Below are positions 12,842 through 54,936 of a stretch of DNA of 64,000 bases, in pieces. The position numbers and the translations under genes are program-made. This DNA is from a virus. The notes beneath the pieces are model-generated. The model was given only the letters and a program-made list of their open reading frames with translations. It did no database searches and was not told the origin of the DNA. Location of the stretch: positions 1 to 64,000 of IMG/VR virus record IMGVR_UViG_3300010413_000005; one strand, written 5' to 3'. Every line of letters starts with the position of its first letter. The stretch's first letter is position 1.

Positions 12842-13159
12842 CTATGCCTTACAAGTGAGGGTCGCGAGTTCTTCCATGATTTGTTCGTCAGCGTTTACCA
12901 TCGATAGCGCCCATACGAAAGAAGCTCTGATGTCGTCTTCTTCTCCGGTCCGAATCATTCCGGCGACGTCCAGAACGTCGGAAAGCAGAGGACTCGGAAC
13001 GATTCCCTCGAAAGCCAAACCAGCGTTTTCAGCCGACTCTACGATCGCGTCCCAATCAAGGTCGATTCTGCCTTCAGACTCGTTCGCGAGCGCCCAATCG
13101 TTTAGAAGCGATACGAAGTTGTAAGCTGCGGCGTAAGCGGTGCTGATCGTGGTCTCCAT
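12842..13159 (-). CDS. hypothetical early protein
   Basis: Downstream of the promoter at 13199; conserved initiation motif. Confidence 0.65.
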   Translation of the reverse strand: METTISTAYAAAYNFVSLLNDWALANESEGRIDLDWDAIVESAENAGLAFEGIVPSPLLSDVLDVAGMIRTGEEDDIRASFVWALSMVNADEQIMEELATLTCKA

Positions 13160-28280: not shown

Positions 28281-29060
28281 CTACTGTTTCTTTTCTAAAT
28301 TCGAAACCCTGCGATCGAGCGATTCCACCGAAGCAGACAACACTCTCAACGCCGCGGTATCCACGGATACCGGATTGCCCAAACTAATTTCGACCGGTTT
28401 CCCTCGTATCACGTCGATTACCGTAGATATCCAAGATACCACGAATTCCAACTGCATGAAAGTTGTATCGATGAATATAGCGTCCGGAGCGCGAACCAGA
28501 GGAGCCACCTTACGATTGGTATCCTGTTCATCCCTTTTCATTATCGAAGTTCGCACGTCTTCGTAATCTGATTCGACTCCGGATTCTTTCAATTGCCGGT
28601 AACGCATATTGGCTCGGAAATCCAAATCAGCGGTCATGTAGATTTTCAAATCGGCGTTGGGGAAAAGAACGGTGCAAGTGTCGCGACCTTCCGTTATGAT
28701 GCTCGATTCCGAATTGTTCGCCATACCTCTGGCTATGATATTCACTTCGTTTCGGACTTCCGGATCCTTGGACAGCGTAGAGGCGATTAGAGACATCTGG
28801 TTGTCTATCACTTCGTTCGTAATCGATCTGCCTTTATACAGCAAATCATTCCCTATCAATTCGAAGAATATACCGTGTATATTCGCCAATTTAGCTGCTT
28901 CTTTATCGTTGCTCTTGAACAACTTCAACAGATAAGCGACTCCTCTGTACAACAGTCCGGTGTTGAGCAAAGTGAACCCTAATCTCTTGGCTAACATTTT
29001 TGATGCGGTGCTTTTACCGGCGCCGCTCGGACCGTCGATGGCCACGATCATCTTTTTCAT
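28281..29060 (-). CDS. cmk: cytidylate kinase
   Basis: IDGPSGAGKST, TGLLYR, EGRD, RDEQD..RKVAPL. Confidence 0.93.
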   Translation of the reverse strand: MKKMIVAIDGPSGAGKSTASKMLAKRLGFTLLNTGLLYRGVAYLLKLFKSNDKEAAKLANIHGIFFELIGNDLLYKGRSITNEVIDNQMSLIASTLSKDPEVRNEVNIIARGMANNSESSIITEGRDTCTVLFPNADLKIYMTADLDFRANMRYRQLKESGVESDYEDVRTSIMKRDEQDTNRKVAPLVRAPDAIFIDTTFMQLEFVVSWISTVIDVIRGKPVEISLGNPVSVDTAALRVLSASVESLDRRVSNLEKKQ

Positions 29061-40684: not shown

Positions 40685-43600
40685 CTATTTGTAGTTGTAA
40701 ATTTTCAAAGCTGTACCGCAGAAGTAACTCGTGCTTCTTCTTCGATCTGATTTCTTCTCTACTTCTACGGCTATCATCTTACCTATGGAAATGTGTTTGC
40801 TAATACTTCTCCAAGTGCTGGCAAAACTTATGATTTCTATGAGTTTTCCGTCCGCACTTATCAATCCTAAGAAGGCCATTTCATTGCCGTTCTTATCGTA
40901 TTTTTTTCGCACGTTAGTTACGATACCTGTATAAAATCCACCTTCTTTGGACTTATGAAATTTGTAATTGGTAGTTCTAATTTCCTTGATTTTGTCATTT
41001 TTCCATTTATAAGTAAGCGCCGGATGCTTTCCGGTGGCTATCAATTCCCAAACGTTCAATTGTTCCCAAGATTGTATTTTGGATCGAAGAGATTCCAAGT
41101 TTACAGCGAAATGCGCTTTCAGATTCTCGTATTTGGCGTTGGGAGTTACACAAGCGATTACCGGAGTGCCTATTCCCTTATCTATGATCGCTCTGTATTC
41201 ATCGAATACGTCGATATCGAACTTGGTCCGATACTGTTTTCCTCCCGGATCTTCCAAGTTGACGTTGGCGTAGCGCGCGCCCCAAAACATCTCTTTTCGT
41301 TCTCTTTCGGACGGCAAGTCTCCGGTGTGAAAGTCGCCTATTTGATTGTATTTGACTTCTACTATGACCGCGGCGACGATACATGCTTTATTCCCGTAAT
41401 CGGCGAAAAAGTCTTCATCACTCATAGAAACTATCGGCAATTTGATATTTTCTTCTATGAAGTCCTTGTACGCTTCTATGGGGTGCGTCCCGAGCGCTAG
41501 CGGATTCACTTCTGAAGAAATCAAACACAAATCTTCTTTTGAGTATTCTTCGGCGCCCTTCGCTTCTTCCAACATAGCGATGACGTCGGCATACTTCTTC
41601 TTAGCCACCAACGCCCAAATAGATTCCAGATTCTCTACCATCCATTTGACGCTGGGAACCATCCCCTCAAGAGCTCCGGCCTTGGACAGAGCCATAACGA
41701 CTCCTTTGTGGCATTTTCTCGCGTCGACTCTAGATATGAAATCCACGAAATCTTTGAATGGCTGATTGGCCATAATAGTATCTGCGGCCGCCGATCCGAC
41801 TCCTTTGATATCTATCAACGAACCTCTGATAGAACGATCGGCCGCGTCCATACTGAAATGCTTCTTGCTGACGTTGATATGCGGAGGTTTCAATTCTATT
41901 CCGTAATTTTTCTTGGCTGCTTTGGCCAATCTTTGTATCCGAACGCGCTCCGGTTCGTTCTTGAGCAACGCCCAATAGAACTCTAACGGATAATGTATCT
42001 TCAACCACATGGTCCAATAGCCTATCAACCCGTATTCGGTAGCGTGCGAATTGTGCGACACTACCGGAGGCGAATCCGGGCTGTGTCCCGCTACGAAATT
42101 GTGTCCTACGGAATCCATCTCCAAATCGTAACAATGCTCTTTACCGTTGGGCGTTATTTTGATTATTTTATCCGCGAAAGTAGGACGGCCCTTGCCCCAA
42201 CGCTTTGTCCTCTCTCCCTTTTCGTAATCCAATTTCTTGTGACAAGAATTGCACAACAAACGCAAATTGGCTTTGCTGTGAAAGGCGGCATGGTTGTAAT
42301 CGCATTCGGCTGGAGATTTGATGTGCGCCACTTCTCCGCCACCTCTGCCTTGGCGACAAATTGTACCGCAATTAGAACATCTGCTATCGGATTCTATCCA
42401 AACTTGCTCTACTTTCAATTTGTATTTGTCGTTGATACGATCCGCTTGGGCGAATCTGGTATCTTTGTTCATCCACCACGGACAATAATCCTTAGCGGTA
42501 TTTTCTCCCATAAACATCAATTCGTCGCCGACAGACAAGCCGGTAGCTATCGATTTGTACCCCCTAGAAGTCATCAACCTGTGCATTCGGCTGATGGCCG
42601 GAGTTTTGTTGCCGGATTCCGTTTCTATGACAAACGTTTCGCGAATGCCGTGATCATGTATTCCTATTAGACGTGCCGGCCGAACGCGCCCATCTTCGTC
42701 CATTTGCAAAAGATGTAATCGACCACCTCTTATCTTTTTCGCTATCGGAGTCAAACGTCCTTTTTCGTCTCTAGAATCTCTCAAACGAACCAACTCTCCG
42801 ATTTGTATTTGCGATTTAGAATGGCTATTAGCTCCTGGCTTCCAAACCCATGCGTTTTTACATATAGTCTTGTTAAATCCGTACGAGCCAAAAAATGTTA
42901 TCGCGTCCATTATCTTATTGGCAGTTTTCGCGTCGACTCCGGCGTGTTTAGCGGCGCCTTCAACGAACTTCGCGCGTTCTTTCCCCAAAGTCTCGTCGCC
43001 TATCTTCTTGGCTATCGTTTTGCGCAATGAATCCGCGGTTCCGGGAGCGAATCCGGCGATGTCTGTGAATATGCGTATAACGTGTTCTTGGTAAACTATG
43101 ATCCCCAACGTGTCCGATGTTATTTCCGATACCTTTGGGTGGAAGTCTACCTTTTTGGCCAACTTCGGATTCTTTTTGCGTTGTATGTACTTCGTAGCCA
43201 AGCCGGACCGAGCGGTCCCTGGTCTGTTCAACGCAGTCATGGCAGGTATGTCTTCGAAGTCGGTGAAGTTGATACCCATGCAAATCTTATCAGCGCTAGG
43301 CGTATCGTATTGGAAAATTCCGTCGTATTTGTGATCAGTGAATCCCTGTAGCGTTTCCGGATCGTTCAAATCGAAGTCGTCGGATTCCAAGTCCAATTTC
43401 TCTCCGGTATTCTCTTCGATCGCTTCCAAACATTCTTTGATGACGGTGAGAGTTCTCAAACCCAACACGTCTATTTTCACCAATCCCACCGCGGCGACGT
43501 TGTACATGTCGGTTGCTGTGACCACTACCGAATCGCCTCCGGATTCCGCTTTACGAACTTCCAACGGCAATAAATCGGTCAACGGGACCGGAGATGCTAC

Positions 43601-45322
43601 GACTCCGGCCGCGTGTATGCCCGGATTCTTAGCCAATCCTTCCAGGCTCTTGGCGTGATAGAGCACCTTTGGATATTTCTTATCGAATTTTCTACACACG
43701 TCGAAGTCTTTGAACGAATCGGCTATTGTCTGACTGGCGCGTTCGTCTCCGCTCGAACGCTCGATGATGCTTTTGGTTACTTGATTGACTTCCGACAACG
43801 GAACTTCCAAAACGCGAGAAACGTCCTTCAAACATTGTTTACCGGATAGTTTGCCCACGGTTGCGATCTGAGCCACTTTATCGCGCCCATACTTACTCAC
43901 CAAATATTCAAATATCTCTTGTCGTCTTCTGTCTTCGAAATCACAATCGATATCCGGCAAGTCGATACGATACGGATTCATGAATCTTTCGAATATCAAT
44001 CCGTGCTCCAGCGGATCGACAGAGGTTATTCCGAGCAAATATGCCACCAAACATCCTCCTACGGAACCGCGTCCTGGTCCGCACATGATTCCGGAGCTTC
44101 GAGCGAATTTGTACAAGTCTCTGATTATCAAGAAATACGGCACGAATTTCAATTTTACAATTGAACCCAATTCGTACTTCAACCTGTTTCCGTACGTCTG
44201 TATAGCGTCTTCGTAACTCACCCCGTTTTTGGCAGAGTATTTACGCGCTCGGGATTTGATATTCCTCCAAGCCCATCCTTCTAAACACAAATCTTTTAAA
44301 TAAGCTGTTTGATCTCCGCGATATTTATCAGGTACGGATAAGTCGGGCAACAAGGCTTGGTGGTAATCGACTTTGAATTCCACGTTACACATTTCTGATA
44401 ACTTCACAGTTGAATTCAAAGCTTCCTTGACGTCTGTTACGGAGAAAAACGGATGGTATTTGAAGAAAGCGGATTTCATTTCTTTCCGCTTTCTCATATG
44501 AAATTCGTTCCCGTCGAATTTGAATCTGTTCGGATCGCTCATGAAGTTATTCGTACCGATACACAACAAAACCTCGTGATGTTCGGAATCGCTCTGGTGT
44601 ACGTAGTGCGCGTCTTGTGTTGCCAACAGCCTATTGGACTTCCCGTATCTCTTGCGCAACTCGAGAGCGAATTTGTTGGCCGTCAATTGGTCCGGAATGT
44701 TGTGCGGTTGGACCTCAATCCACAGATTACTACCGAACTCATCTCTCAATCGATCGGCAAATTCGATCGCGAACCTTTTCTTACCCAGCACGCATGAATC
44801 GTATACCGGACTAGCCAGACATCCCGTGCCCAAACTGATTCCTTCTTTGTACTCGCACAAAGCTTCAAGATCGATTCTCGGTTTGTAATAAAATCCGTCG
44901 ATGTAAGCCGAACTGGACAGTCTGAATAGGTTCTTCAATCCCTCCGAGTTGTGCGCCCAAGCCGTTATGTGCCAGCGTTTTGATATGCCGTGTTTCTCTT
45001 CGTATTCCTTGATGACTTTCTTGGCTTCTGCTCCCTTCTTGCCTTCTGAAATCTCGTTCTTTTCCTCCGCGGTCAATCCCTTCCTGTGCATATTATTACA
45101 CACGTAAAATTCGATTCCGTATATCGGCTTCACGTCGGTTCCCTTGCACTCTTCGTATTGGTGCATATATCCGCGCATGGTTCCGTGATCGGTAAAAGCG
45201 ATCGCCGGATTGCCTCTTTGTTTGGCTTCTTCTACGTAGTCCTTGATTTTACTTCCACCATCCAAAGTAGAATTATCACTATGCGTGTGCAAGTGTACGA
45301 AGTCTTCTTTTTTATTTGGCAT
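40685..45322 (-). CDS. dnaE: DNA polymerase III alpha subunit with intein
   Basis: PHP motifs (HLHTHS, TDHG, TQDAHY), GPGRGS, PDIDCDF, HAAG, KIDVLGL, YGFNK/SHA. Confidence 0.97.
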   Translation of the reverse strand: MPNKKEDFVHLHTHSDNSTLDGGSKIKDYVEEAKQRGNPAIAFTDHGTMRGYMHQYEECKGTDVKPIYGIEFYVCNNMHRKGLTAEEKNEISEGKKGAEAKKVIKEYEEKHGISKRWHITAWAHNSEGLKNLFRLSSSAYIDGFYYKPRIDLEALCEYKEGISLGTGCLASPVYDSCVLGKKRFAIEFADRLRDEFGSNLWIEVQPHNIPDQLTANKFALELRKRYGKSNRLLATQDAHYVHQSDSEHHEVLLCIGTNNFMSDPNRFKFDGNEFHMRKRKEMKSAFFKYHPFFSVTDVKEALNSTVKLSEMCNVEFKVDYHQALLPDLSVPDKYRGDQTAYLKDLCLEGWAWRNIKSRARKYSAKNGVSYEDAIQTYGNRLKYELGSIVKLKFVPYFLIIRDLYKFARSSGIMCGPGRGSVGGCLVAYLLGITSVDPLEHGLIFERFMNPYRIDLPDIDCDFEDRRRQEIFEYLVSKYGRDKVAQIATVGKLSGKQCLKDVSRVLEVPLSEVNQVTKSIIERSSGDERASQTIADSFKDFDVCRKFDKKYPKVLYHAKSLEGLAKNPGIHAAGVVASPVPLTDLLPLEVRKAESGGDSVVVTATDMYNVAAVGLVKIDVLGLRTLTVIKECLEAIEENTGEKLDLESDDFDLNDPETLQGFTDHKYDGIFQYDTPSADKICMGINFTDFEDIPAMTALNRPGTARSGLATKYIQRKKNPKLAKKVDFHPKVSEITSDTLGIIVYQEHVIRIFTDIAGFAPGTADSLRKTIAKKIGDETLGKERAKFVEGAAKHAGVDAKTANKIMDAITFFGSYGFNKTICKNAWVWKPGANSHSKSQIQIGELVRLRDSRDEKGRLTPIAKKIRGGRLHLLQMDEDGRVRPARLIGIHDHGIRETFVIETESGNKTPAISRMHRLMTSRGYKSIATGLSVGDELMFMGENTAKDYCPWWMNKDTRFAQADRINDKYKLKVEQVWIESDSRCSNCGTICRQGRGGGEVAHIKSPAECDYNHAAFHSKANLRLLCNSCHKKLDYEKGERTKRWGKGRPTFADKIIKITPNGKEHCYDLEMDSVGHNFVAGHSPDSPPVVSHNSHATEYGLIGYWTMWLKIHYPLEFYWALLKNEPERVRIQRLAKAAKKNYGIELKPPHINVSKKHFSMDAADRSIRGSLIDIKGVGSAAADTIMANQPFKDFVDFISRVDARKCHKGVVMALSKAGALEGMVPSVKWMVENLESIWALVAKKKYADVIAMLEEAKGAEEYSKEDLCLISSEVNPLALGTHPIEAYKDFIEENIKLPIVSMSDEDFFADYGNKACIVAAVIVEVKYNQIGDFHTGDLPSERERKEMFWGARYANVNLEDPGGKQYRTKFDIDVFDEYRAIIDKGIGTPVIACVTPNAKYENLKAHFAVNLESLRSKIQSWEQLNVWELIATGKHPALTYKWKNDKIKEIRTTNYKFHKSKEGGFYTGIVTNVRKKYDKNGNEMAFLGLISADGKLIEIISFASTWRSISKHISIGKMIAVEVEKKSDRRRSTSYFCGTALKIYNYK
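42050..42868 (-). mobile_element. 273-aa intein with an HNH homing endonuclease
   Basis: Interrupts YGFNK|SHA; ends CYDLEM...HNFVA...VSHN; internal CSNC...VAHI...NLRLLCNSCH. Confidence 0.92.
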
Positions 45323-45584
45323 TTTCTTCTATCAAGTACAGAGCGACGTCTTTCAAATCTTCCGGATAATCTCCGAATACTATTTCGTCCAGCACCGACG
45401 GTTCTTCAGCTCCCATCTCGGCCAGACTTCTTTTTTTGCCGTTTATCGTCAATTTCGCGTCGTATCCCCTAACGTCGATATCATATTCCAATTTCTCTTT
45501 GGCGATATTGAATGACGAATTGGTAGGCAGTCCGGAGACTCGAGCTCCGGACGCCCATTGTCTTATCTTCTTCAAAGACGGCAT
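45312..45584 (-). CDS. hypothetical protein coupled to dnaE
   Basis: Overlaps the dnaE start. Confidence 0.6.
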   Translation of the reverse strand: MPSLKKIRQWASGARVSGLPTNSSFNIAKEKLEYDIDVRGYDAKLTINGKKRSLAEMGAEEPSVLDEIVFGDYPEDLKDVALYLIEENAK

Positions 45585-45587
45585 GCG

Positions 45588-46607
45588 CTATTCGTTCTCT
45601 AATCTTTCTCCGGTCCAAGGATTCCTTTGCCAGAACACTGCGTATTCCGCGGCGCGATCGATCATCTCGTAAGCCATAGGAACCTTGTATTTGTGCAACG
45701 TATCGATTTGATGAGCTTTCGATATATCTTCTTGTTTCCCCATCTGTTCAGGTATTCTGTGGTGACGGAAATGAAGAGGACAAGGAGGATGTTGATCCAA
45801 TCCTTCGTACCGACGTCGATTCTCTTCGTGATAGACGCATCCGGAAAAACAATCGTCCTTGATACACGGAGGGCAAACCAGTTCCGCGAACGCCGGATGG
45901 ACCTTGTTGACCAGTTCGCTTACTATTCCCATGATGACTGGACCCCACAACCCCAATTGCAAAATGAAACAACCTCGTTCTCCGACTATGTGTTGCAACG
46001 AACTGATGTTCATTTTCCAACTCATACGGTGTTGAGATGCGAGCGGCATCGTATCCCGAGCGTCTTCCATAGGTATGTTGCTAGCCACCAAGAAATTGTA
46101 AGTTAGCTGTATTCTCTCCATCAGATCGACGTACGCCCTCAACACGTTAGGATCTCCGTGTCTCAAGATGCTTTCCGGTATGCGATAGTCGCTATCGGTA
46201 AAGAATCGACCTTGATTCCGGATGCGCATTGACTGCGACCAGAACGACGATTTGGCCAGGTCTGGTACAATGTCCATGTAGATATCGGCTCCGATCGATT
46301 CCGGTCCTGGAAGAACTCCGATTCTGTGACGCACGGCTTGTTCCCTCCAAGATATCGAAATGTGTTCCAACATGAAAGTGAAGTCGATGTGTTCTCCTAC
46401 CGGTATGCGTTGTTTTATCACCGAGTGAAAAACGTCTTGCACTTCTTTCGCCGATACCTTCGAATACACTTGGTCCGGAGTCAATAACTCGTCGTCGTTT
46501 TTCGAAGCTTGCCAAACACTGTAAATCGTTTCCAACGGAAACGCTGTGAAAGTCAACAGCGTGACTTTCGGAGTCTTTACCAATCTTTTGTTCGCATTAT
46601 TTTCCAT
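45588..46607 (-). CDS. divergent ThyX-like flavin-dependent thymidylate synthase
   Basis: EH.DFTF, EQAVRHR, SFWSQSMR, EDARDTMP. Confidence 0.85.
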   Translation of the reverse strand: MENNANKRLVKTPKVTLLTFTAFPLETIYSVWQASKNDDELLTPDQVYSKVSAKEVQDVFHSVIKQRIPVGEHIDFTFMLEHISISWREQAVRHRIGVLPGPESIGADIYMDIVPDLAKSSFWSQSMRIRNQGRFFTDSDYRIPESILRHGDPNVLRAYVDLMERIQLTYNFLVASNIPMEDARDTMPLASQHRMSWKMNISSLQHIVGERGCFILQLGLWGPVIMGIVSELVNKVHPAFAELVCPPCIKDDCFSGCVYHEENRRRYEGLDQHPPCPLHFRHHRIPEQMGKQEDISKAHQIDTLHKYKVPMAYEMIDRAAEYAVFWQRNPWTGERLENE

Positions 46608-47181
46608 TTCGATCTCCTTTCGTCAATATGCTAACCGCCAAGTCCCAAAGTCCTTCCGGCGATGTGTGATCTGTGATCAATTTCCACACGCGTGGTACGT
46701 GTTTCCCGATTTGATCGGAGGCGTAATCCAACCGATTGTTTATTCGTTCGGCGTTCTCGGGCATCCTAATTCCCACCCTGCCAACCGAAGTTTTGATGTC
46801 GCACATCAAATGGATGTAAGTCAAATCGGTTCTGGATTTGATGATGTCTATCCACCATTGTAACGTTTCTTCGGCCATTTCTCGATTGAAAAAATCTCCG
46901 TCTTCCAACCCGTACGCGAACGCTGACGGCATCGAACGATCTAACACACATTCCAACGACGTGAATTTGGATAACAAATCCGCTACGAATAGATCTTCTA
47001 CGTACGAATTGAAAGGGATCCTGAATCTCCTCAGTTTCAATTCCAATTCCTTGGCGTGTTTGAAATGAATTGCTGTGTCGTCCTTGAATGCTCTTACGAT
47101 AGGGATATTGAAATATCCACTGACTTTTTTGGCTAGAGTCGTTTTACCGACTCCGTTCATCCCTTCGATTATCACTAACAT
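46597..47181 (-). CDS. P-loop dNMP kinase
   Basis: IIEGMNGVGKTT, VLDRSMPSAFAYG. Confidence 0.85.
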   Translation of the reverse strand: MLVIIEGMNGVGKTTLAKKVSGYFNIPIVRAFKDDTAIHFKHAKELELKLRRFRIPFNSYVEDLFVADLLSKFTSLECVLDRSMPSAFAYGLEDGDFFNREMAEETLQWWIDIIKSRTDLTYIHLMCDIKTSVGRVGIRMPENAERINNRLDYASDQIGKHVPRVWKLITDHTSPEGLWDLAVSILTKGDRNGK

Positions 47182-48350
47182 CGTGATTTAGCTTCCATCG
47201 CCGAATGTGCTTGTTCCAGAATAGACAATCCGTAATCGAGATCGTCAAGTGTGATATTCAGCGGAGGAGTGATTTTCACCGGTCCTGGTCCCTTCCGGAA
47301 CGCTCCTATGAGCAGACCTCTCTTCAAACATTCCTGCCCCAATTCCAACACGTCGTGCGGACTATCGTACGCTATCAACAGGCCGGTTCCTCTAACGTTT
47401 TTCGGATATCCGATTTTGCCCAACACGCTTTTGACGTGAGACGATTTGCCGTTTATCGAATCCATGTTGGGCGAATACTCCAGATAGTCCAACATACCGT
47501 TCACGTGCGCCATACCGATCGGATTACCTCCGAACGTAGAGAAGTGAGTTCCGGAGGTGAATGTTTCGCTAAACGGTTTCAACGCCAAACAAGCTCCGAC
47601 CGGGCATCCCATAGCTACTCCCTTGGCCATCGTCATTACGTCCGGCTGTACGCCTATCTTTTTCGCGTAAGAGAAATCTCCGCAGCGTCCGGCGCCGGTT
47701 TGGACTTCGTCGAATATCAACGTTATGTTGTGTTCGTTACACTTGACTCTCAAGTCGATCAACCAGTTGTGATCGTATTCTCGGACGTCGTTGTTGCCGA
47801 ATACTGGAGCTATGAGGACCGCGGTGGCCAAATATGGATCTATCTCTTCCAGATGTTCGAATTTTCTGAATCCTCCAGTCAGCGGTCCGAATCCCTCTGT
47901 GTGGTGCGGAGGACCGTCGCCGGCCGATAGCGATCCCAGAGTTCGGCCATGAAATGATCCTTTCACTGTGTAAATGTATTTGCTACGTCCTGATTCGTAC
48001 GTAAAATCTGATTTGAATCTCTTGTATTGATACAAACGCGCCAACTTGATCGCCGCTTCGACCGCTTCGGTTCCGCTGTTACAAAAAAACACCTTATCCA
48101 TACCGGTCAAATAACACAGACGTTCCGCGGCGATGTTTCTCTCCTCGAAGCTGAACAGATTGGGAACGTGAACCGGAGTGTGATTCCCTTTCATATCGCT
48201 AATCACTCTTTCGTGACACACGGAACAATATCCCAACGACGAAGTTCCGACGTCGCAGAAGAAATCCAGGAATCTCTCTCCGCGTCTGGTAATCAAATAA
48301 GATCCGTTTCCCGATACGAACTCGGGAGCGTATTGATTCAAAGTATTCAT
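47175..48350 (-). CDS. class III PLP aminotransferase (ArgD/RocD-like)
   Basis: CNSGTEAVEAAIK, SFHGRT, IFDEVQTG, PDVMTMAKG, STFGGNP. Confidence 0.93.
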   Translation of the reverse strand: MNTLNQYAPEFVSGNGSYLITRRGERFLDFFCDVGTSSLGYCSVCHERVISDMKGNHTPVHVPNLFSFEERNIAAERLCYLTGMDKVFFCNSGTEAVEAAIKLARLYQYKRFKSDFTYESGRSKYIYTVKGSFHGRTLGSLSAGDGPPHHTEGFGPLTGGFRKFEHLEEIDPYLATAVLIAPVFGNNDVREYDHNWLIDLRVKCNEHNITLIFDEVQTGAGRCGDFSYAKKIGVQPDVMTMAKGVAMGCPVGACLALKPFSETFTSGTHFSTFGGNPIGMAHVNGMLDYLEYSPNMDSINGKSSHVKSVLGKIGYPKNVRGTGLLIAYDSPHDVLELGQECLKRGLLIGAFRKGPGPVKITPPLNITLDDLDYGLSILEQAHSAMEAKSRC

Positions 48351-49273
48351 CAACGATTTGTTACACATCTATTGTCCTCCGCTAATCTGGTTATGTCCTT
48401 CCAATTGTATACCCTTGTGATGCTTTCGTGTTCCACGGATTTGTTTTTAGGAGTGTCGTAAAGTAAAACCTTGATTCCGGCTTGCGCCAATGATAATGCG
48501 TTCCTATCCAAGTCTTCTACGAAAAAAATCGGCCATGCCGGAGAAATGTGTCTGTAAACCGCCTCTACTTTGTCTCTGTTGAAAAGCAATATGTCGTACG
48601 GTATTTTGTATTTGCGCAACCACCATAAGGTATCGTGATACATTCTCTTGAATTGCCATTGCGGTCGCGCCGTTATTATGGCTATCTTATACCCCATCGA
48701 TTTCAATTTTCTGATTCCGGTAATCGCTCCGCGGATCGGTTTCAATTCCCGGAGGAATCCCTTCGAATGCAATTCATCCTTGTATGCTTCGATTTCGTCG
48801 AATCCCTTGCCTCTGTATTCTCTTTCGCTTTTAGAACGCAGAGCGTTGAAATCGGTTATCACGTCGTCCATGTCCAAACAAATCAACTTGGTGAACTTGG
48901 ATAATTTGAATTTGGCCGCGGTCGCGCGCGTCGATATCACTTTGGTTTTGCTATCGAACACCTTGGCTATGTCTTCCGGTTCGATTCCGTACACCAAAGA
49001 CAAAGAAATCGTGATTTTCAGAATATCCACCAATTCCTCTACCACATTACGTTTATCGGGAGAGTGTGTGTCCAAAAGGTGTCGTTTGTAGGAAGGTGAC
49101 AAACGAGCCAATTCGCCCACTTCTTCGTACAACAACATCGTCAGATCTTGAATCGCTCGAGTCGCCTCTAAATTGCTCATGCAAGACGAATCCATTCCGA
49201 ATTCCTTCTGCTGTTCTTTTTGCAGCTTCCAGAATGCGTCCAAGGATCTATCGAGCGATTTCTTACTTTCCAT
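48350..49273 (-). CDS. dimeric dUTPase/MazG-like domain fused to a HAD 5'-nucleotidase
   Basis: EEVGEL...EELVDILK; CLDMDDVI, ITARP, DK, VED. Confidence 0.85.
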   Translation of the reverse strand: MESKKSLDRSLDAFWKLQKEQQKEFGMDSSCMSNLEATRAIQDLTMLLYEEVGELARLSPSYKRHLLDTHSPDKRNVVEELVDILKITISLSLVYGIEPEDIAKVFDSKTKVISTRATAAKFKLSKFTKLICLDMDDVITDFNALRSKSEREYRGKGFDEIEAYKDELHSKGFLRELKPIRGAITGIRKLKSMGYKIAIITARPQWQFKRMYHDTLWWLRKYKIPYDILLFNRDKVEAVYRHISPAWPIFFVEDLDRNALSLAQAGIKVLLYDTPKNKSVEHESITRVYNWKDITRLAEDNRCVTNR

Positions 49274-50258
49274 CGCCTACTCCCTTTTTCCTCCAACCCC
49301 AATGCTTAGCCAAATCGTACGCTTGCTCCATGACGACGTCGACGGTGGCGCGCGGATTCCAACTCGCGAACCGACCCAACGGCGCGACTCTTTCCGGCCA
49401 TTGAGGAGGTTCCGCCAATGGTAGCAAATGCCCTTTCATATTCCTTTTCCATTCCAGTATTTCGAATCCGTTGGGGAATAGAAAATTCAAATCAGAATAA
49501 ACTCCTGATTCGTTCATTTCTCCGGATACTTCACACGAATAGAATCCGTCTACGTATGACAACCTGTGTATGGAATTTCCCGGAGTGTACGGTGTGTAAA
49601 CGTAATCCCAACGAACGTACGGATTGCCTACCGGTTTCACGTTTATCAAATGCAAGGCCATCGCCGTAGAATCGGGAAAGTGTTCGAAATGTCCTATCTT
49701 TTTGATGATCCACAACGGTATGGTGAATACCAAATAATCGAAATCGAACGTAACGGCGTTGGTGTTTATCGCGATTCCGGCGTCAAGAGAGAACGTAGCT
49801 ATAGCGCTATTGTTTATATTGGCTCGTTTGCCCAATTCTTCTATCAACGCGTTCAAATCACATCTCATGCCCTTTTTCGTGTTACCGGAGAACGGATCGT
49901 TCATGCACTTGGTAGAGAATTCGCTGGGTTCCATCTTGCGCGTTTTTACGTAATGATCGTGCTGTATACGCTCAAACGCCTTCCGTCCTACTTTCTGCAT
50001 GTGTTTACGATAGTCCTTGACTTCTCCTTGTAAGTGTATCCCTCCCTTTATGGTGAAGTTGCTGTACGCCAAACCGAGTTCTCCGAGCATCGATCTGATC
50101 AGATTACTTTTGTGTAGATACTTCAATCCTCCAGAGGAGAACTCTCCTCCCAATTTGTTGGGTTCGAATACCGTCACTTCGATATCGTAAAATTGATTGA
50201 AAACGTAAGACGCGACCAACCCGGAGATTCCTCCTCCTACCACAATTACTTTTTTCAT
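49263..50258 (-). CDS. FAD-dependent oxidoreductase (Glf/amine-oxidase-like fold)
   Basis: VIVVGGGISG, LGG, VFTIPL, LGRFASW. Confidence 0.85.
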   Translation of the reverse strand: MKKVIVVGGGISGLVASYVFNQFYDIEVTVFEPNKLGGEFSSGGLKYLHKSNLIRSMLGELGLAYSNFTIKGGIHLQGEVKDYRKHMQKVGRKAFERIQHDHYVKTRKMEPSEFSTKCMNDPFSGNTKKGMRCDLNALIEELGKRANINNSAIATFSLDAGIAINTNAVTFDFDYLVFTIPLWIIKKIGHFEHFPDSTAMALHLINVKPVGNPYVRWDYVYTPYTPGNSIHRLSYVDGFYSCEVSGEMNESGVYSDLNFLFPNGFEILEWKRNMKGHLLPLAEPPQWPERVAPLGRFASWNPRATVDVVMEQAYDLAKHWGWRKKGVGDGK

Positions 50259-51209: not shown

Positions 51210-52209
51210 CTGAAAGCTTTTTTACCAGTTGTGAATACCAAGTCACGTAATCTGACACATATTTCCAAGTGTATTCAGCTCCTGAAACACCTCCTGTAAT
51301 CAAATTGTATTTACCCTCTAAAACCAAAGTCTTATGAATCTTTCCCTTCTTCAAGAACAGTACCGCTCCCCAATGGTAGTAATGAACCTCTCTCGCCCAT
51401 TCTCCGGCCGATTGGATATCCCTGGCCGGATCGTTAGGTCTGGGATCAAGATTGCGTTTCTTGATTATCTTTCTGACGAAATCGTAATCGAATTTGTTAT
51501 TCTTGCTTAGGTGTATCATGGGCCAAGTACCCTTGTCTATATATATCTGTGATATCTCGGGAAATTCTGATTCTGCCAGATACGTAAACGCCCTCCTGAT
51601 TCGTAGGCTGGAATAGTCGACCGCGTTCTTGCTCACACCGATATACTTGGCTATCAATCCGTTGGTCATCTCGGATTCGCCTTCGTTGTCCATGAAAATC
51701 ATGAACGCCTCCGGTGGATGACACATGATATCCAAAACGGTCCGATCTCGTTCGCACAACTTGTTTCTCAATTTCATTTTCAATTCCAGGCGACGCTGGT
51801 TGTCTTCGGATTGTTCGTAAACGGAATACGGATCCGGGATGTCTCCCTTGATAGTTTCTCCGGATTGCTCGGCCATCTCTTCTATCGAGACTAACTGCCA
51901 AGCCTGTTTGGAAACTATCATCCGTCCGTTTCTTTCTTGAACTACGTGCGGAACCTTGGAATTGGTCATAGAATTCTGTATTATTCTTATGGCTTCGTAT
52001 CTCAAAACCTTACTGACGAATCTGTGGAATTTACCTCTTCCGGCGTTGAAATCGTACGAATCGAAACACCTCTGAAACATGGCCACGCGCAATTCTTGCA
52101 TTGCGTCGTCGAACGGGATACCGGAAGCGATGTTGATTTTTCTAGCGTGCGTTTTCAGAATTGGCCATACGTGCTTTTCCAAATCCGCGTACAATTCTTG
52201 TAAAACCAT
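51181..52209 (-). CDS. divergent sigma-factor-like protein
   Basis: DAMQEL...SYDFNAGRGKFHRFV (region 2) and NGLIAKYIGVSKNAV (region 4 HTH). Confidence 0.7.
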   Translation of the reverse strand: MVLQELYADLEKHVWPILKTHARKINIASGIPFDDAMQELRVAMFQRCFDSYDFNAGRGKFHRFVSKVLRYEAIRIIQNSMTNSKVPHVVQERNGRMIVSKQAWQLVSIEEMAEQSGETIKGDIPDPYSVYEQSEDNQRRLELKMKLRNKLCERDRTVLDIMCHPPEAFMIFMDNEGESEMTNGLIAKYIGVSKNAVDYSSLRIRRAFTYLAESEFPEISQIYIDKGTWPMIHLSKNNKFDYDFVRKIIKKRNLDPRPNDPARDIQSAGEWAREVHYYHWGAVLFLKKGKIHKTLVLEGKYNLITGGVSGAEYTWKYVSDYVTWYSQLVKKLSDARKQKKVP

Positions 52210-53824
52210 TTCGATCTCCCTTTTTACCGAACAACTTCTTTCCCAGACCACTGTACAAAGCCAAGGGTAAATCATCCAATTTCATTATCGCGGAACAAAC
52301 GGCTCCGGTTTTCTGATTGTAAAATGCGGCCACATCTATAGTAAGCACGCCTATGGATATCACTTCTATTCCGGATTTCGTTATCGTTTCCACAGATTCA
52401 GCCAAATGGTTGGCTAAAATACCACTGTCGCATCCGTACGCCAAGGGCGCTCCGTCCGACAATACAATCAACACTTTGCGCTTTTCTTGTCGCACTATCA
52501 AACGTTTAGCAGCAGACAAAATCGCTTCTCCGTCCGCGTTATCCATGTATCCGTCGATGAAAGAGAATCTACTTCTGCACACATTTAGTCTTTCATCGAA
52601 TTCCTTGAATACTATGTAATCGAACGGCGCTCGAGCCTGATATATCTCGTCTTCGAAGTTGATTCCCTTCGGATATCTTTCCACATTGTTGTGAAATCCC
52701 AATACTTCAAACGGGATTCCCAATCTCTCTATGGTGTCGGATAATCCTACGGCGGATACTCTTACGTGCCAAGCCTTGGTCTTTTTCTTTTTCGCCTTGC
52801 CCATGGAACCGGACAAGTCAATCAAAATCAATATCGCTGTTGAAGTATCGACCGGAGCTCCGCGTTCATAATGCACGTTTCGATTACCGGTTATGACCGA
52901 ATGTAGAGAAGAAGAATCCAGAAATCCGCTATCTCGGTCGCCGATCGGAGCGCGTTCCTTTTCCGCTCTCATTGTTTCGATAATCGCCCTGCGCATCGCC
53001 GAAGCATTCTTCTTCGTTTCTGACAAGTCGGATACGAACGTGGACGCGTTTCCGGTAGTCGGTTTCACCCAACGGTCCATGGCCAAACAATCCGGATGCG
53101 GAATGTATCTGCCATTCTTCAACACGTCGTTCTTTGATTCCTGTTCGATTTTGTCTTTCAATCGCGATTTGAAATCGAAAGATTGCTCTCCGGCCGGAGG
53201 GATGAACGAAATCATAGGAGATATCTTCTTGGCCAATTCGTATGTACTTTCGGAATCGGCAAGCGATTTCACAGACAAAAACATCTCAGATATCGGTTCG
53301 TATTCGGATCTAACGTGATCCGGAATCCACCTCAAATCCAGATTCAACCCGTCGGATATCGCTGCGCACAAAAGCATTTTGAAGTCGGACAATTCTCCGG
53401 CCTTGGATTGCTTCTCTAACAACTTCGACGCCTCATTGTTGGAGAAATCCAGATTGTCTTTCATTCCCGGATAAATCGCGCCGTATTTCAATTCTATTCT
53501 GATGTCTTCCAAAGCGTTGAATGCCGACTTCACTTTCACGTCGGATTCGTTTTTGTACAGATCTACGGCGCCCCTCAAACCGCGATTCTTGGAATACACT
53601 TCTTCGGCCGCGTGACACAATTCGTGATCCAGTTCTCCGTTCAACGCGCGCATTGAGGACTTGCCCAGTTTGTCCGAATTGTAAGGCAATCTTATCACGG
53701 TTCCGTCGAAATCACAACGGCATCCGGTCATTTCCACTGATACGTGGTAATTGTTCGATATCGCGCGCGCTATGTTAGCGAACGGAGTCTCCAGCTTCCG
53801 GAGGTGTTGAACAGATTTTTTCAA
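52142..53824 (-). CDS. CobT-like VWA protein
   Basis: DHELCH, NALEDIRIE, LIDLSGSM, IVLSDGAP. Confidence 0.88.
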   Translation of the reverse strand: MKKSVQHLRKLETPFANIARAISNNYHVSVEMTGCRCDFDGTVIRLPYNSDKLGKSSMRALNGELDHELCHAAEEVYSKNRGLRGAVDLYKNESDVKVKSAFNALEDIRIELKYGAIYPGMKDNLDFSNNEASKLLEKQSKAGELSDFKMLLCAAISDGLNLDLRWIPDHVRSEYEPISEMFLSVKSLADSESTYELAKKISPMISFIPPAGEQSFDFKSRLKDKIEQESKNDVLKNGRYIPHPDCLAMDRWVKPTTGNASTFVSDLSETKKNASAMRRAIIETMRAEKERAPIGDRDSGFLDSSSLHSVITGNRNVHYERGAPVDTSTAILILIDLSGSMGKAKKKKTKAWHVRVSAVGLSDTIERLGIPFEVLGFHNNVERYPKGINFEDEIYQARAPFDYIVFKEFDERLNVCRSRFSFIDGYMDNADGEAILSAAKRLIVRQEKRKVLIVLSDGAPLAYGCDSGILANHLAESVETITKSGIEVISIGVLTIDVAAFYNQKTGAVCSAIMKLDDLPLALYSGLGKKLFGKKGDRNGFTRIVRGFGKARMANSENAR

Positions 53825-54936
53825 GTAGTTCCTCCGAAATGTCTCTGTACCAATCCGCCTACGAAAACGGAATCCGAAGCGTCCATCTTATTCAATATGG
53901 TGATTCGCGCCGCTCGAGTTACATCTTTCAGTTTCAAATTTTTGCGCGACCATTCGATCAACGACCGAGTTGAAATGGACGAATAGCAATCTCCTCTACT
54001 GCAAGACTCTCTAACCATGTTGGCCAATCTGACCATCTTGGTCGCCGTTCGGTCGTCTATTCCCTTACACCGCTTCATCAATATGGATTTTTCCACTTTC
54101 GGACTCGGGAACGTCATATATATCACGACTCCGAACCGATCGACGAATGACTCTTTTTGAGGCAAATCATTACATGTAGCGATGATTCTGAAATTGGGAT
54201 CGAATTCGATCGATCTGCCTCCGTCTCCGGTGATTACCAGCTGGCGAGGTTTGGTCATGGCGGTGTACAACGAAAACGATATGTGTCCGGGCATCGCTTC
54301 GACTTCTTCCAACAGTAGCCAATAACCGCGATCGGCCGATATCGGTAGCGAACCGTCAAACCATTCGGTTTTTGATTGCCCGGTCTTCTTGTCGATGGTC
54401 ACACCCTTTTCTCCGATGAATTCGGCTTTGCGCATATCCCCATCGTTTTGTACCCTCAATACCGGTTGATTGCAGATCGAAGCCAACTCCATAACCAGGG
54501 TGGATTTACCGACTCCGACCGGTCCGTGTATCAGAACATTGTCGTCATCTTCGATTCCCAAAGACAACTCCTCAAGATGACCCGCTTCTCGATCTGATAT
54601 GATCCATTCCGGATCATGTATCGGAACCATTTTGGAATCTCTCTCCGAGAGCTCTCTTTTGAAAGAAGGACTCGCAGCCCCTATTCTGAATACTGTAAAA
54701 GATGATCCGGTTCCCGGATCGACTCCGATTATGTTATGGCGACTTGCCTCTTTGCGCAATTGGTGCGCTGCGTCGCTGACCGTCGGAGCTCCGGGATACT
54801 TGTTCAGATACGCGATGACGTCCATATCGTGTTTCTTGTTCACGTGGACGTCTAATCGATGATACCATTGTCCGCATTCTTTACACTGTATTTTTTTGCG
54901 GCCTTTTCCGTCAATGCTGCTAGTAGGATCTCCCAT
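53821..54936 (-). CDS. CobS/MoxR-like AAA+ ATPase with an N-terminal zinc finger
   Basis: CKEC...H...H; GPVGVGKS, LLEE, FRIIATCN, DRF. Confidence 0.88.
   Translation of the reverse strand: MGDPTSSIDGKGRKKIQCKECGQWYHRLDVHVNKKHDMDVIAYLNKYPGAPTVSDAAHQLRKEASRHNIIGVDPGTGSSFTVFRIGAASPSFKRELSERDSKMVPIHDPEWIISDREAGHLEELSLGIEDDDNVLIHGPVGVGKSTLVMELASICNQPVLRVQNDGDMRKAEFIGEKGVTIDKKTGQSKTEWFDGSLPISADRGYWLLLEEVEAMPGHISFSLYTAMTKPRQLVITGDGGRSIEFDPNFRIIATCNDLPQKESFVDRFGVVIYMTFPSPKVEKSILMKRCKGIDDRTATKMVRLANMVRESCSRGDCYSSISTRSLIEWSRKNLKLKDVTRAARITILNKMDASDSVFVGGLVQRHFGGTT

Follow-up and report, generated by a model that had tools for sequence, protein, structure and literature searches.

Five genes for nucleotide-handling enzymes precede the DNA polymerase gene in the 114-kb genome of an uncultured sediment phage, and the question raised by this locus is what a set that includes a class III aminotransferase and an FAD-binding flavoprotein would deliver to replication. 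The window analysed here is a stretch of 64,000 nucleotides from this genome, in which a sequence-only reading had proposed an operon making a modified pyrimidine. Our answer, offered tentatively and at somewhat less than an even chance, is that a conserved, phage-specific cassette makes a modified pyrimidine before replication, namely a non-canonical and probably amine-bearing deoxynucleotide; if this is true, a phage cassette makes an unusual DNA building block.

Gene layout upstream of DnaE

The five genes occupy positions 45588-50258 of the minus strand, where they are co-directional, overlapping and intact, and lie upstream of an intein-bearing DnaE (Table 1). Reading from 50258 to 45588, the flavoprotein (FADox), the MazG/HAD fusion, the aminotransferase, the P-loop kinase and the ThyX-like protein follow one another with start/stop overlaps of 11, 19, 7 and 11 nt; an SD-like AGGA/GGAG motif stands ahead of every ATG (a weak one in the case of the kinase), and the N-termini are backed by homologue alignments. 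Coordinates, overlaps and domain matches thus bear out the five overlapping genes and the families first named for them. The term operon holds for the gene overlaps but not for a separate unit: promoter-like and terminator-like sites occur at chance level and do not set the five genes apart from their surroundings, the genes being part of a long minus-strand replication block from which a separate operon is not demonstrable. The DnaE gene is immediately downstream of the cassette, and the small ORF described as overlapping it is indeed there, starting 3 nt past the ThyX-like stop and overlapping the DnaE start by 11 nt. Because searches of Pfam, PHROG and NCBIfam returned no match for this ORF, and tblastn across 43 loci returned one weak relative only (L015, 27%), it is poorly conserved and probably lies outside the cassette.

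Table 1. Positions in the window of the cassette genes, their downstream neighbours and two kinase genes given for context
Feature	Length (aa)	Position	Strand	Matches and remarks
FADox, FAD-binding flavoprotein	331	49263-50258	-	NAD_binding_8, DAO, Thi4 matches
MazG/HAD fusion	307	48350-49273	-	dUTPase_2 residues 16-120; NT5C/HAD 121-297
Class III (ArgD-like) PLP enzyme	397	47175-48368	-	Aminotran_3, 225 bits
P-loop kinase	194	46597-47181	-	Weak AAA_28 and dNK matches; PHROG 761 'thymidylate kinase'
ThyX-like protein	339	45588-46607	-	Thy1, 64 bits
Small ORF	90	45312-45584	-	Between ThyX-like and DnaE
DnaE-type replicative polymerase	1545	40685-45322	-	PHP, DNA_pol3_alpha, finger, HHH_6 domains
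Canonical thymidylate kinase (context)		26028-26654	-	Pfam Thymidylate_kin, 137 bits
Cytidylate kinase (context)		28281-29060	-	Pfam Cytidylate_kin, 184 bits

Predicted activities of the five enzymes

By family, the nearest relatives of the aminotransferase are ArgD, AstC and putrescine aminotransferase, and the closest in sequence are ArgD/AstC (PDB 2eh6, 2ord, 4adb; E 1e-51 to 1e-57), with which it shares the fold-type I class III architecture, the PLP lysine (Lys249), DEVQTG and the Arg of FHGRT. Unlike these enzymes, it carries APVFGNNDV in place of EPxQGExG and Lys in place of the Arg of the C-terminal VxRFxPPL, and its 290 bits against the NCBIfam ArgD models (cut-off 372) lie under every ArgD cut-off. 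In canonical ArgD/OAT enzymes this Glu and this Arg serve dual substrate recognition; since the gate they form is lost, the PLP lysine and the Arg of FHGRT are kept and the ArgD scores stay below cut-off, the sequence points to a new substrate. Homologues fall into about 95 phage-type clusters at 41-86% identity, beyond which identity drops to about 38% among the remaining, ArgD-named hits, and the clade in which the canonical EPxQGExG/Arg gate is lost is, judged from these alignments, phage-specific.

The genomic setting of this clade sets it apart as well, being one of nucleotide genes, whereas that of ArgD/AstC is one of arginine genes. In a survey of 79 aminotransferase-anchored viral loci in IMG/VR, a MazG-HAD, ThyX-like, kinase or DnaE gene lay within 5 kb at every one of the 32 loci carrying the derived motif, as opposed to 0 of the 47 carrying canonical or other motifs. 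A ThyX match lies nearby in 31 of the 32, so that the linkage of aminotransferase to ThyX, on which the sequence-only reading depended, does extend to related genomes. One tree split (SH-aLRT 99) parts the derived clade from other viral class III aminotransferases, which is compatible with a single origin.

For the fusion protein, the Pfam matches (dUTPase_2 plus NT5C/HAD_2), PHROGs 173 and 2643 (annotated as NTP-pyrophosphohydrolase and 5'-3' deoxyribonucleotidase) and profile matches in the PDB to cdN (4l57, 1.9e-7), mdN (1mh9), MazG-like proteins (2q73/2gta) and DCTPP1 agree with the homologue alignment, in which the HAD motifs D134/D136, D234-K235 and E253-D254 are fully or almost invariant, and in which D83 and K86 of the MazG-like domain are invariant and E51 nearly invariant. 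The predicted protein is an N-terminal all-alpha NTP pyrophosphatase of the MazG/dimeric-dUTPase type joined to a C-terminal HAD 5'(3')-deoxyribonucleotidase of the cdN/mdN type.

The kinase profile matches YorR (2axp, 1.8e-10), Tmk (2pbr, 3.5e-9) and dNK (1j90, 2e-5), and the P-loop GxxGxGK(S/T), the DRS motif and the lid Arg are conserved, which assigns the protein to the Tmk/dNK/YorR superfamily and makes it the third NMP-kinase-like gene predicted in the genome; no homologues were found in cultured phages. The idea of a dedicated kinase is weakened in so far as this is not the sole pyrimidine kinase, canonical Tmk and Cmk being encoded together with a dCMP deaminase. With the ThyX-like protein, these genes are predicted to provide a complete ordinary dCMP to dUMP to dTMP to dTDP route and hence ordinary dTTP. 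In genomes G003 and G004, where no canonical Tmk was found, the cassette kinase is the sole Tmk-like gene, and this ties it to the ThyX-like product. The genome also encodes three DNA methyltransferases and one UDG-superfamily protein.

The five enzymes might accordingly do nothing other than supply ordinary pyrimidine dNTPs and control their pools, virion DNA being canonical apart from methylation, an explanation that we regard as possible yet on balance doubtful. The MazG/dUTPase domain would then give dUMP and bar dUTP from DNA, the ThyX-like protein would make plain dTMP, the kinase would be a second dNMP or deoxynucleoside kinase in a substrate cycle with the cdN-type HAD domain, and the aminotransferase and flavoprotein would be supporting or unrelated (one-carbon, redox, amino-acid or polyamine metabolism). 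Such substrate cycles are formed in animal cells by cdN/mdN with TK1/TK2, and dCMP deaminase, Tmk, Cmk, DNA methyltransferases and UDG are genes usual in phages whose bases are canonical. The complete canonical route, the methyltransferases and the UDG favour this explanation, as do the collinearity of the replication block among relatives and the failure of promoter and terminator signals to set the five genes apart. It leaves unexplained a phage-only, gate-rebuilt aminotransferase that sits beside nucleotide genes only, a class of enzyme that to our knowledge has no role in dTTP synthesis; it equally gives no reason for this genome (G000) to keep a third kinase in addition to Tmk and Cmk, and a pyrophosphatase fused to a dUMP/dTMP-type nucleotidase and adjoining a thymidylate synthase is, to judge from the predicted activities, hard to explain with dTTP supply as its sole aim.

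The ThyX-like protein reaches 48 bits against TIGR02170 (cut-off 87.9), and its structure model (pLDDT 78) matches T. maritima ThyX in Foldseek with a TM(target) of about 0.65 at 19% identity. It retains the RHR motif, S126/R128, R184 and R211 (the last two aligned to Tm R147 and R174), has I in place of Y91, and bears an insert of 22-30 aa within the RHR...S.R motif and, at the C-terminus, an extension rich in Cys; C213, C248, C257 and C276 are invariant in 35/35 distinct sequences, drawn from 43 loci plus the window. These features mark it as a divergent homologue of flavin-dependent thymidylate synthases, and no ThyA-type enzyme was found in the genome. The hallmarks of a remodelled ThyX are present, but they do not belong to the cassette exclusively: the subfamily, insert and four Cys included, stands alone beside PolA at at least 15 other loci. 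It appears independent of the other four genes and, because of this solitary occurrence, is most simply a dTMP synthase, which again suits plain dNTP supply.

The Pfam matches of FADox are weak and N-terminal, and its AlphaFold model (pLDDT 91.7) is more informative: in a VIA-wide structure comparison UGM (4dsg) came out best, with Z 25.7 across 322 residues, followed by PPO (Z about 23), LAAO/MAO (Z 18-20) and renalase (Z about 18), and Foldseek concurs. The model indicates a compact flavoprotein of the UDP-galactopyranose-mutase / protoporphyrinogen-oxidase / amine-oxidase fold. None of the 142 homologue clusters bears a name, viral sequences make up 95-100% of the nearest Atlas clusters and no relatives were found among 185,579 GTDB genomes; the family is phage-only, its members being limited to unnamed metagenome and virus sequences. 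GxGxxG, GGLKY, H102/K105/T106/R107 and GRFAxWxPRxT are invariant in the homologue alignment, and the H/K/R residues among them would fit an anionic substrate. Since alcohol oxidases do not typically have the amine-oxidase/UGM fold, a 5-hydroxymethyl to 5-formyl step is conjecture, and the case for the 5-formyl intermediate suggested earlier as a target of transamination is weakened.

The same fold lends itself to a different scheme, which we consider very unlikely, whereby the product stays at the nucleoside level and replaces no DNA base, an amino-deoxynucleoside serving as inhibitor, signal or anti-defence molecule. MazG-HAD would strip a dNTP to the deoxynucleoside, the flavoprotein would oxidise the 5' or 3' hydroxyl of the sugar, the aminotransferase would turn the resulting carbonyl into an amine and the dNK-like kinase would re-phosphorylate the product; in the extreme form, a 5'-amino precursor would lead to phosphoramidate links. 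Oxidoreductase, aminotransferase and HAD phosphatase follow the same logic in pathways to amino sugars, for example NtdABC for kanosamine, and terminal aldehydes and amines are typical substrates of class III aminotransferases. UGM, the closest fold, is a uridine-nucleotide-sugar enzyme, the fusion can in principle go from dNTP to nucleoside, the kinase profile also fits deoxynucleoside kinases, and the ThyX-like protein would be dispensable, in keeping with its independent occurrence. However, phages are not known to make any product of this kind, and a chain terminator with an amino sugar, if produced from within the replication module, would put the DnaE of the phage itself at risk. The basic residues that are invariant in the flavoprotein would point to a phosphorylated substrate and not to a nucleoside, and the adjacency of aminotransferase and ThyX-like genes would go unexplained.

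Conservation of the set across phages

The co-occurrence expected across phage genomes was found: within the DnaE phage group, about 25 loci in IMG/VR, anchored on ThyX or FADox, have all five genes, and profile search finds the set also in the deeper lineages L022, where the cassette adjoins an MCM-like helicase, and L044, whose DnaE is only 35% identical. Across module-bearing contigs the DnaE relatives range from 35 to 68% identity. Much of this co-occurrence is shared ancestry, because in the main group the entire 20-kb replication block is collinear, flanks included.

Shared ancestry could in turn mean that no joint function exists, the genes being co-expressed early and inherited with one conserved replication module while each enzyme acts independently. 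Besides the synteny of the full flanking block on the same contigs, lone members speak for this: the ThyX-like protein with PolA, the ThyX-like protein plus kinase, with DnaE but without aminotransferase, in L007, and FADox in G001 (104 kb, CheckV 100%), where it adjoins DnaE and keeps most invariant residues, no aminotransferase, MazG-HAD or ThyX-like gene was found and a more canonical ThyX and a Tmk are present. In G003, moreover, the FADox-MazG-HAD pair lies 25 kb from the ThyX-aminotransferase-kinase group. We nonetheless judge independence unlikely, since the derived aminotransferase never occurs in IMG/VR outside the nucleotide-gene/DnaE context, the set is kept where DnaE is only 35-50% identical or absent from the locus, the aminotransferase is placed differently with respect to ThyX from locus to locus while the genes remain adjacent, and FADox-MazG-HAD and aminotransferase-kinase persist as pairs even where separated from each other.

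A candidate route and its relation to known systems

In the modified-pyrimidine reading that we tentatively prefer, the MazG-like domain would convert pyrimidine dNTPs to dNMPs, feeding dUMP forward and draining the canonical competitor, and the cdN-type HAD domain would dephosphorylate unwanted dNMP. The ThyX-like protein would place a carbon on C5 of dUMP, and the flavoprotein and the gate-altered PLP enzyme would tailor the substituent, e.g. by oxidising it to an aldehyde that is then transaminated to an amine, or would instead supply an aldehyde or amine partner. The extra Tmk/dNK-like kinase would phosphorylate the product, which canonical Tmk may not accept, and the phage DnaE would incorporate it, T probably being replaced only in part; we infer all of these chemical steps. 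The pathway as originally conceived is supported in part, by its gene families, the phage-only aminotransferase and FADox, their association and the missing ThyA, and is weakened by a kinase and a ThyX that are not exclusive to it.

The same pool-level logic governs SPO1/SP8-type Bacillus phages, in which thymidine is replaced pre-replicatively by 5-hydroxymethyl-dU (PMC8989533), and T4 with its hm-dC: from established knowledge and that paper, they too combine a thymidylate-synthase-family enzyme acting on a dNMP, a competitor-removing pyrophosphatase or nucleotidase and a dedicated kinase, placed with replication genes. The cassette differs in that its synthase is of the flavin-dependent ThyX type, not ThyA-type, its class III PLP enzyme and UGM/amine-oxidase-fold flavoprotein have no counterpart there and, comparing genes alone, its genome has canonical Tmk and dCMP deaminase.

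The amine-bearing C5 substituents on T proposed here are known from M6, ViI, PaMx11, PhiW-14 and SH-Ab 15599, where they arise post-replicatively (PMC8989533; PMC13458397). PLP- and FAD-dependent tailoring enzymes occur in both settings, as with the MnmC-like FAD oxidoreductase gp47 of PaMx11, which yields 5-aminomethyl-dU (Lee et al., PMC8989533). However, M6/ViI/PaMx11-type hypermodification begins with a ThyA-type dUMP hydroxymethylase followed by 5-HMUDK and aGPT-Pplase on DNA, and its PLP enzymes are decarboxylases instead of class III aminotransferases. The arrangement of the cassette suggests action on mononucleotides. The earlier failure to recognise known hypermodification enzymes was confirmed by the missing ThyA and by searches of the genome with M6 gp51-gp54 and gp58, which gave no match (best E 0.23); because no ThyA turned up, nor anything related to M6 5-HMUDK or aGPT-Pplase, it is plausible that nucleotides are tailored before replication by a new route.

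C5 chemistry that precedes replication in a phage with ThyX-family genes is known from Bacillus phage SP-15, as its 5-dihydroxypentyl-dU is made before DNA synthesis and one of its two Thy1/ThyX-family proteins has been proposed as a non-canonical synthase (PMC5977210). The SP-15 side chain is a diol rather than an amine, no aminotransferase is reported, its side-chain enzymology is likewise unsolved, and SP-15 is absent from the tblastn matches of the ThyX-like protein, with no sequence relationship found between the two.

A loosely similar block in a cultured phage, that of the Pbunavirus Pseudomonas phage PB1 (gp68, gp61, gp59, gp57, gp51), lacks the aminotransferase, the MazG-HAD fusion and a homologue of the cassette kinase, and we found no literature report of modified T in PB1-type phages; that flavoprotein, ThyX, MazG or HAD genes occur in these phages and in G001 while no aminotransferase does counts in favour of ordinary dNTP supply. 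PB1 has a DnaE-type polymerase (gp57) 34% identical to that of the window, an HAD-PNKP protein and a MazG nearby, a 333-aa weak flavoprotein relative (gp68; profile 5e-7, N- and C-terminal motifs only) and a ThyX (gp61) that matches the ThyX-like profile at 1e-17 and is, with 108 bits against Thy1, much closer to canonical ThyX than the cassette protein is.

The class III aminotransferase clade and its genomic context

The strongest single result of our analysis is that the class III aminotransferase of the cassette belongs to a clade that, across IMG/VR, is confined to a nucleotide and replication context and has a rebuilt substrate site. The protein scores 225 bits against PF00202, its PLP lysine (Lys249, in an (A/G)KG motif aligned with the lysine of AcOAT) is invariant, and the DEVQTG stretch and the FHGRT arginine are retained; its nearest relatives are ArgD and AstC, and it falls below every curated ArgD cut-off (290.6 against 372 for NF002325, the best NCBIfam model, and 262 against 410 for TIGR00707). 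Where 2eh6, 2ord and 4adb have (E/I)(P/V)IQGE(G/S)G, canonically EPxQGExG, the window's enzyme reads APVFGNNDV, and where they have (V/I/L)RF(L/A)P(P/A)L it reads PVKITPPL, the arginine of the C-terminal VxRFxPPL being replaced by lysine; the EPxQGExG glutamate is lost throughout the derived clade. In ornithine aminotransferase this glutamate and this arginine gate dual substrate recognition and, given the lost gate, it is possible that the phage enzyme acts as a phospho-lyase or aminomutase instead of a transaminase. About 95 clusters are of the phage type, at 41-86% identity; the matches below them carry ArgD names and drop to about 38%. One tree split (SH-aLRT 99) parts the derived aminotransferases from all others. 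The source gene call is a shorter, 339-aa product (P0242); the start that yields 397 aa is backed by homologue alignments and by a GGAGGA motif.

Scanning IMG/VR with the aminotransferase as anchor gave 80 loci, 79 of which were tabulated. A gene for the MazG-HAD fusion, the ThyX-like protein, the kinase or DnaE lies within 5 kb in every locus with the derived motifs (32 of 32), and a ThyX match is present in all of these except L118, that is, in 31, whereas the 47 loci whose motifs are canonical or of another kind come mostly from giant-virus MAGs and unrelated phages and have none of the four nearby. Locus L118 and a second one, L113, where the ThyX match is only 24% identical, hold a deeper lineage of the aminotransferase with the motifs TPAMVNKDF and TPAMVYDGF, its gene flanked by those for a MazG-HAD relative and for a DnaE that is 37-39% identical.

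The co-occurrence of the five families across phage genomes, which the sequence-only reading proposed as a check, is found, with exceptions. All five genes occur together with DnaE in 21 of the 43 ThyX-anchored loci, and four further loci with the full cassette were reached via the flavoprotein; in two others, L022 and L044, profiles reveal a divergent flavoprotein upstream of MazG-HAD, the neighbour being an MCM-like helicase in L022 and the DnaE being only 35% identical in L044. The arrangement is not fixed: the related genome G003 carries the flavoprotein-MazG-HAD pair 25 kb from its ThyX, aminotransferase and kinase genes, and whether the aminotransferase precedes or follows ThyX differs between loci. 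Because the whole 20-kb block is collinear across the main group, much of this co-occurrence is shared descent and not independent evidence. There are also exceptions. The complete, 104-kb genome G001 has the order up294 (an upstream gene), flavoprotein, DnaE, with the flavoprotein directly upstream of DnaE, and lacks the aminotransferase, MazG-HAD and the ThyX-like protein; a Tmk and a ThyX nearer to the canonical type (89 bits) are encoded elsewhere in it. Locus L007, from a close relative (DnaE 62% identical), has the ThyX-like protein, the kinase and DnaE, and a class I SAM methyltransferase gene directly upstream of the first two, where other contigs hold the flavoprotein, MazG-HAD and the aminotransferase; with about 1.1 kb of contig upstream of the ThyX-like gene, the remaining cassette genes could lie past the contig end, or else nucleotide-modifying genes may have a hot spot in this slot. 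The independent occurrence of the ThyX-like protein and the flavoprotein in other phages, and the part that shared ancestry plays, count against a nucleotide-tailoring pathway; that the five genes are merely juxtaposed strikes us as improbable when set beside the constant company kept by the derived aminotransferase.

Layout and recurrence of the cassette

The five ORFs are arranged in tandem on the minus strand, in the transcription order flavoprotein (331 aa), MazG-HAD fusion (307 aa), class III PLP enzyme (397 aa), kinase (194 aa) and ThyX homologue (339 aa), with successive overlaps of 11, 19, 7 and 11 nt and a Shine-Dalgarno-like motif before each ATG, a weak one in the case of the kinase; a poorly conserved 90-aa ORF and then the 1545-aa DnaE follow. 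Replication genes lie both upstream (a UvsW-like helicase, DnaC-like and DnaB-like proteins, primase, a MoxR/CbbQ-type AAA protein and a CobT-like VWA protein) and downstream (RecA, Mre11/Rad50-like proteins, RuvC, FEN and UDG). The last two of the upstream set form a pair between primase and cassette that is retained in related contigs (upstream genes up560 and up371). Since the counts of promoter-like and terminator-like sites in our scan match those of shuffled sequence, the boundary of an operon is not placeable, and the word here denotes a tightly packed section of a long co-directional block.

The 113,818-bp IMG/VR record whose first 64 kb make up the window has direct terminal repeats and is rated 100% complete. 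Contigs from marine sediment, soil and sediment, obtained in three studies independent of one another, carry the 5-kb stretch holding the cassette with 0-1 differences, which shows the phage to be both real and recurrent. In one sediment sample (run X1) its contig has a depth of about 70x. A blastn search with the same stretch against INPHARED returned no cultured relative at the DNA level. The cassette itself is self-contained, measures about 4.7 kb and is found in dozens of uncultured sediment and soil phages.

The partner enzymes

The model of the ThyX-like protein indicates a ThyX fold: Foldseek aligns it with T. maritima ThyX at probability 1.00 and TM(target) of about 0.65 (19% identity), and it scores 64 bits against PF02511 (Thy1; cut-off 24.8), falling below the equivalog TIGR02170 (48.2 against 87.9). 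In the homologue alignment R93-H94-R95, S126, R128, R184 and R211 are invariant, and R184 and R211 line up with the T. maritima stretch containing R147 and R174, which, with R78/R80 and R90, we take to be the dUMP-binding arginines in T. maritima numbering. The signature RHRxxSxxxxSxR is split by an insert of 22-30 aa, modelled with low confidence, Ile or Val takes the place of Tyr91, and four cysteines in a C-terminal extension (C213, C248, C257 and C276) are invariant, in the window as in loci L003-L045, and could make up a metal or redox site. All 35 distinct ThyX-like sequences (from 43 IMG/VR loci and the window) have these hallmarks, among them copies from loci where the gene stands by itself just upstream of a family A polymerase (PolA); the remodelling is therefore a trait of a widespread viral subfamily and does not mark a coupling to the aminotransferase or the flavoprotein. 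Homologues of the ThyX-like protein fall into roughly 240 clusters. Of the PolA phages with the same subfamily, one encodes a radical SAM/SPASM protein directly upstream of the ThyX-like gene (locus L029) and another a YfbR-like HD 5'-deoxynucleotidase (locus L030). Among cultured phages, tblastn against INPHARED finds only ordinary phage ThyX, at 23-31% identity.

The Pfam match of the flavoprotein is confined to the N-terminal dinucleotide fold. In its model (pLDDT 91.7) the closest fold is UGM 4dsg (Z 25.7, rmsd 3.4, 322 aligned residues), which leads protoporphyrinogen oxidase, second in rank, by about 3 Z units; then come amine and amino-acid oxidases and renalase; the likeness to UGM is one of fold, at 12-14% sequence identity, and this fold is common to amine oxidases and protoporphyrinogen oxidase. 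The His, Lys and Arg residues that are invariant in the family would be in keeping with an anionic substrate. None of the 142 homologue clusters carries a name, and those nearest in the Atlas are 95-100% viral, while tblastn against INPHARED gave no match among cultured phages; a profile search of the contigs of 185,579 GTDB genomes found no prokaryotic relative and hence offers no clue to a host or prophage. We do not favour the idea that it feeds formaldehyde or reduced flavin to ThyX, given that the two genes are 20 kb apart in G001.

The C-terminal half of the fusion is a predicted 5'(3')-deoxyribonucleotidase, with both the family match (PF06941, NT5C, 37 bits against a cut-off of 24.8; cdN 4l57 by profile at 1.9e-7) and the HAD catalytic motifs, which comprise DxDxV, Thr/Ser, Lys and an acidic pair: D134, D136, R203-P204 of an ITARP stretch and K235 are invariant, and D234, E253 and D254 nearly so. 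In cultured phages (INPHARED) this domain has only remote nucleotidase matches. The other half is a probable all-alpha NTP pyrophosphatase, borderline in Pfam (PF08761, 23.0 bits against 22.9) and matching PHROG 173 at 9.7e-6 and, by profile, the MazG-like 2q73/2gta and DCTPP1; D83 and K86 are invariant and E51 nearly so, within the LYEE and EExxDxxK stretches conserved among its homologues.

The kinase matches PF02223 in its P-loop only (14.4 bits, below the cut-off), is placed by profile in the wider Tmk/dNK/YorR superfamily and has no match among cultured phages (tblastn, INPHARED). We set it aside as an analogue of 5-HMUDK, since BLAST with the M6 proteins shows no similarity. It is the third NMP-kinase-like gene of the genome, the others being a canonical thymidylate kinase and a cytidylate kinase; in the related genomes G003 and G004 it is the only Tmk-like gene.

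Proposed nucleotide tailoring and its rivals

Two explanations lie close together. The one we put first, while holding it at somewhat short of an even chance, is that the cassette constitutes a nucleotide-tailoring pathway, as suggested by the strict tie of two phage-only proteins, the re-gated aminotransferase and the flavoprotein, to the ThyX-like protein, a pyrophosphatase-nucleotidase fusion and an extra kinase, by the apparent absence of the known ThyA/5-HMUDK/aGPT-Pplase route, and by the presence of a dUMP/dTMP-type nucleotidase beside a thymidylate synthase, which is hard to explain. The other, an entirely credible contender, is ordinary nucleotide supply with unrelated accessory enzymes. 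In its favour, and against tailoring, the ordinary thymidylate route is complete: with a dCMP deaminase, the canonical Tmk and the ThyX-like protein, the phage encodes the steps from dCMP through dUMP and dTMP to dTDP. Trimeric dUTPase and class I/II RNR are absent from the genome. Of the pre-replicative modification operon put forward from sequence alone, then, the five overlapping genes stand and the modification reading is plausible, but an ordinary dTTP route is encoded as well. The sequenced holders of the cassette are all contigs, with none listed as RNA, and as such are not informative on base modification.

Coordinates of features in the window, its genome and related loci
Feature	Location	Strand	Remark
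Sigma-70 family factor	window 16817-18109	-	
DNA methyltransferase, D12/Dam class	window 20252-21070	-	
DNA methyltransferase, N6_N4_Mtase	window 25480-26028	-	C-terminal part only
Canonical thymidylate kinase	window 26028-26654	-	PF02223, 137 bits (26058-26609)
DNA methyltransferase, MT-A70	window 27644-28276	-	
Cytidylate kinase	window 28281-29060	-	
ThyX-like protein	window 45588-46607	-	
Class III aminotransferase	window 47175-48368	-	
CobT-like VWA protein	window 52142-53824	-	
MoxR/CbbQ-type AAA+ ATPase	window 53821-54936	-	
dCMP deaminase	genome 106413-106925	-	
Flavoprotein of G001	L070/G001 12041-13105		
Class I SAM methyltransferase	L007 180-1070		
Radical SAM/SPASM protein	L029 1224-2327		
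YfbR-like HD 5'-deoxynucleotidase	L030 9043-9675		

The earlier statement that none of the known thymidine hypermodification enzymes is recognisable in the window is borne out as far as the following searches reach. ThyA (PF00303) has no match in the window's genome or in the related G001, G003 and G004, in searches whose controls respond, and BLAST finds no relatives of the phage M6 proteins gp51-54 and gp58: gp58 is unmatched, and gp54 and gp51 reach best E values of 1.1-1.2 by tblastn of one representative against the genome and 43 related loci. Every enzymatically solved route to hypermodified thymidine begins with a ThyA-type hydroxymethylase and takes its last steps on the DNA polymer (PMC8989533); since the defining enzymes of the Lee/Weigele post-replicative systems are apparently absent, the cassette does not appear to be a member of them. 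It resembles the pre-replicative base replacement of SPO1 and T4, from which it differs in having a synthase of the ThyX type and two further enzymes for tailoring, and SP-15, where C5 chemistry is pre-replicative in a phage with Thy1-family genes, is a loose precedent. Our literature searches found no published description of a phage ThyX/aminotransferase pathway or of this cassette. Cultured phages of the PB1 type speak against tailoring in that they have a loosely similar block without the aminotransferase: homology of the DnaE and ThyX of PB1 to those of the window is confirmed, the tie between its gp68 and the flavoprotein is weak, and the cassette kinase is missing as well. DNA of phage JG024 is cleaved by SacII (PMC3008698), whose site is T-free and thus uninformative on T.

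In its most specific form, which we regard as distinctly tentative and rather unlikely as stated, the tailoring pathway would lead, in these sediment and soil phages, to partial replacement of T by an amino-bearing, C5-substituted dU, such as 5-aminomethyl-dU, given as 257 u in PMC8989533, or one with a longer aminoalkyl chain. The ThyX-type enzyme, the flavoprotein of UGM/amine-oxidase fold and the re-gated PLP enzyme would build the base wholly at the mononucleotide level, the dedicated kinase would phosphorylate the modified nucleotide and the phage DnaE would incorporate it. Transamination of a 5-formyl intermediate, offered as an example by the sequence-only reading, would give a 5-aminomethyl group and is one of several possible chemistries; an amine-oxidase/UGM fold does not favour the alcohol oxidation. 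A nucleoside-level product that does not enter DNA is the least probable explanation that we consider, and a 5'-amino (phosphoramidate) backbone precursor is an extreme form of it only.

If the phages do make such an amino-bearing dU, theirs would be the first route to a cationic DNA base that is built on ThyX, depends on an aminotransferase and is completed before replication. It would add a new biosynthetic logic for modified DNA, in which ThyX chemistry is combined with finishing by a transaminase and a flavoprotein on free nucleotides; two enzyme families would acquire new substrates and, possibly, biotechnology a polymerase-ready cationic dNTP. Even if the DNA proves canonical, the strict bond of a re-gated, phage-only aminotransferase clade to thymidylate and replication genes needs explaining.

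The genome further encodes a UDG-superfamily protein and three DNA methyltransferases, and the phage appears to rely also on adenine or N4 methylation. It likewise has its own full-length sigma-70 family factor, with regions 2, 3 and 4.
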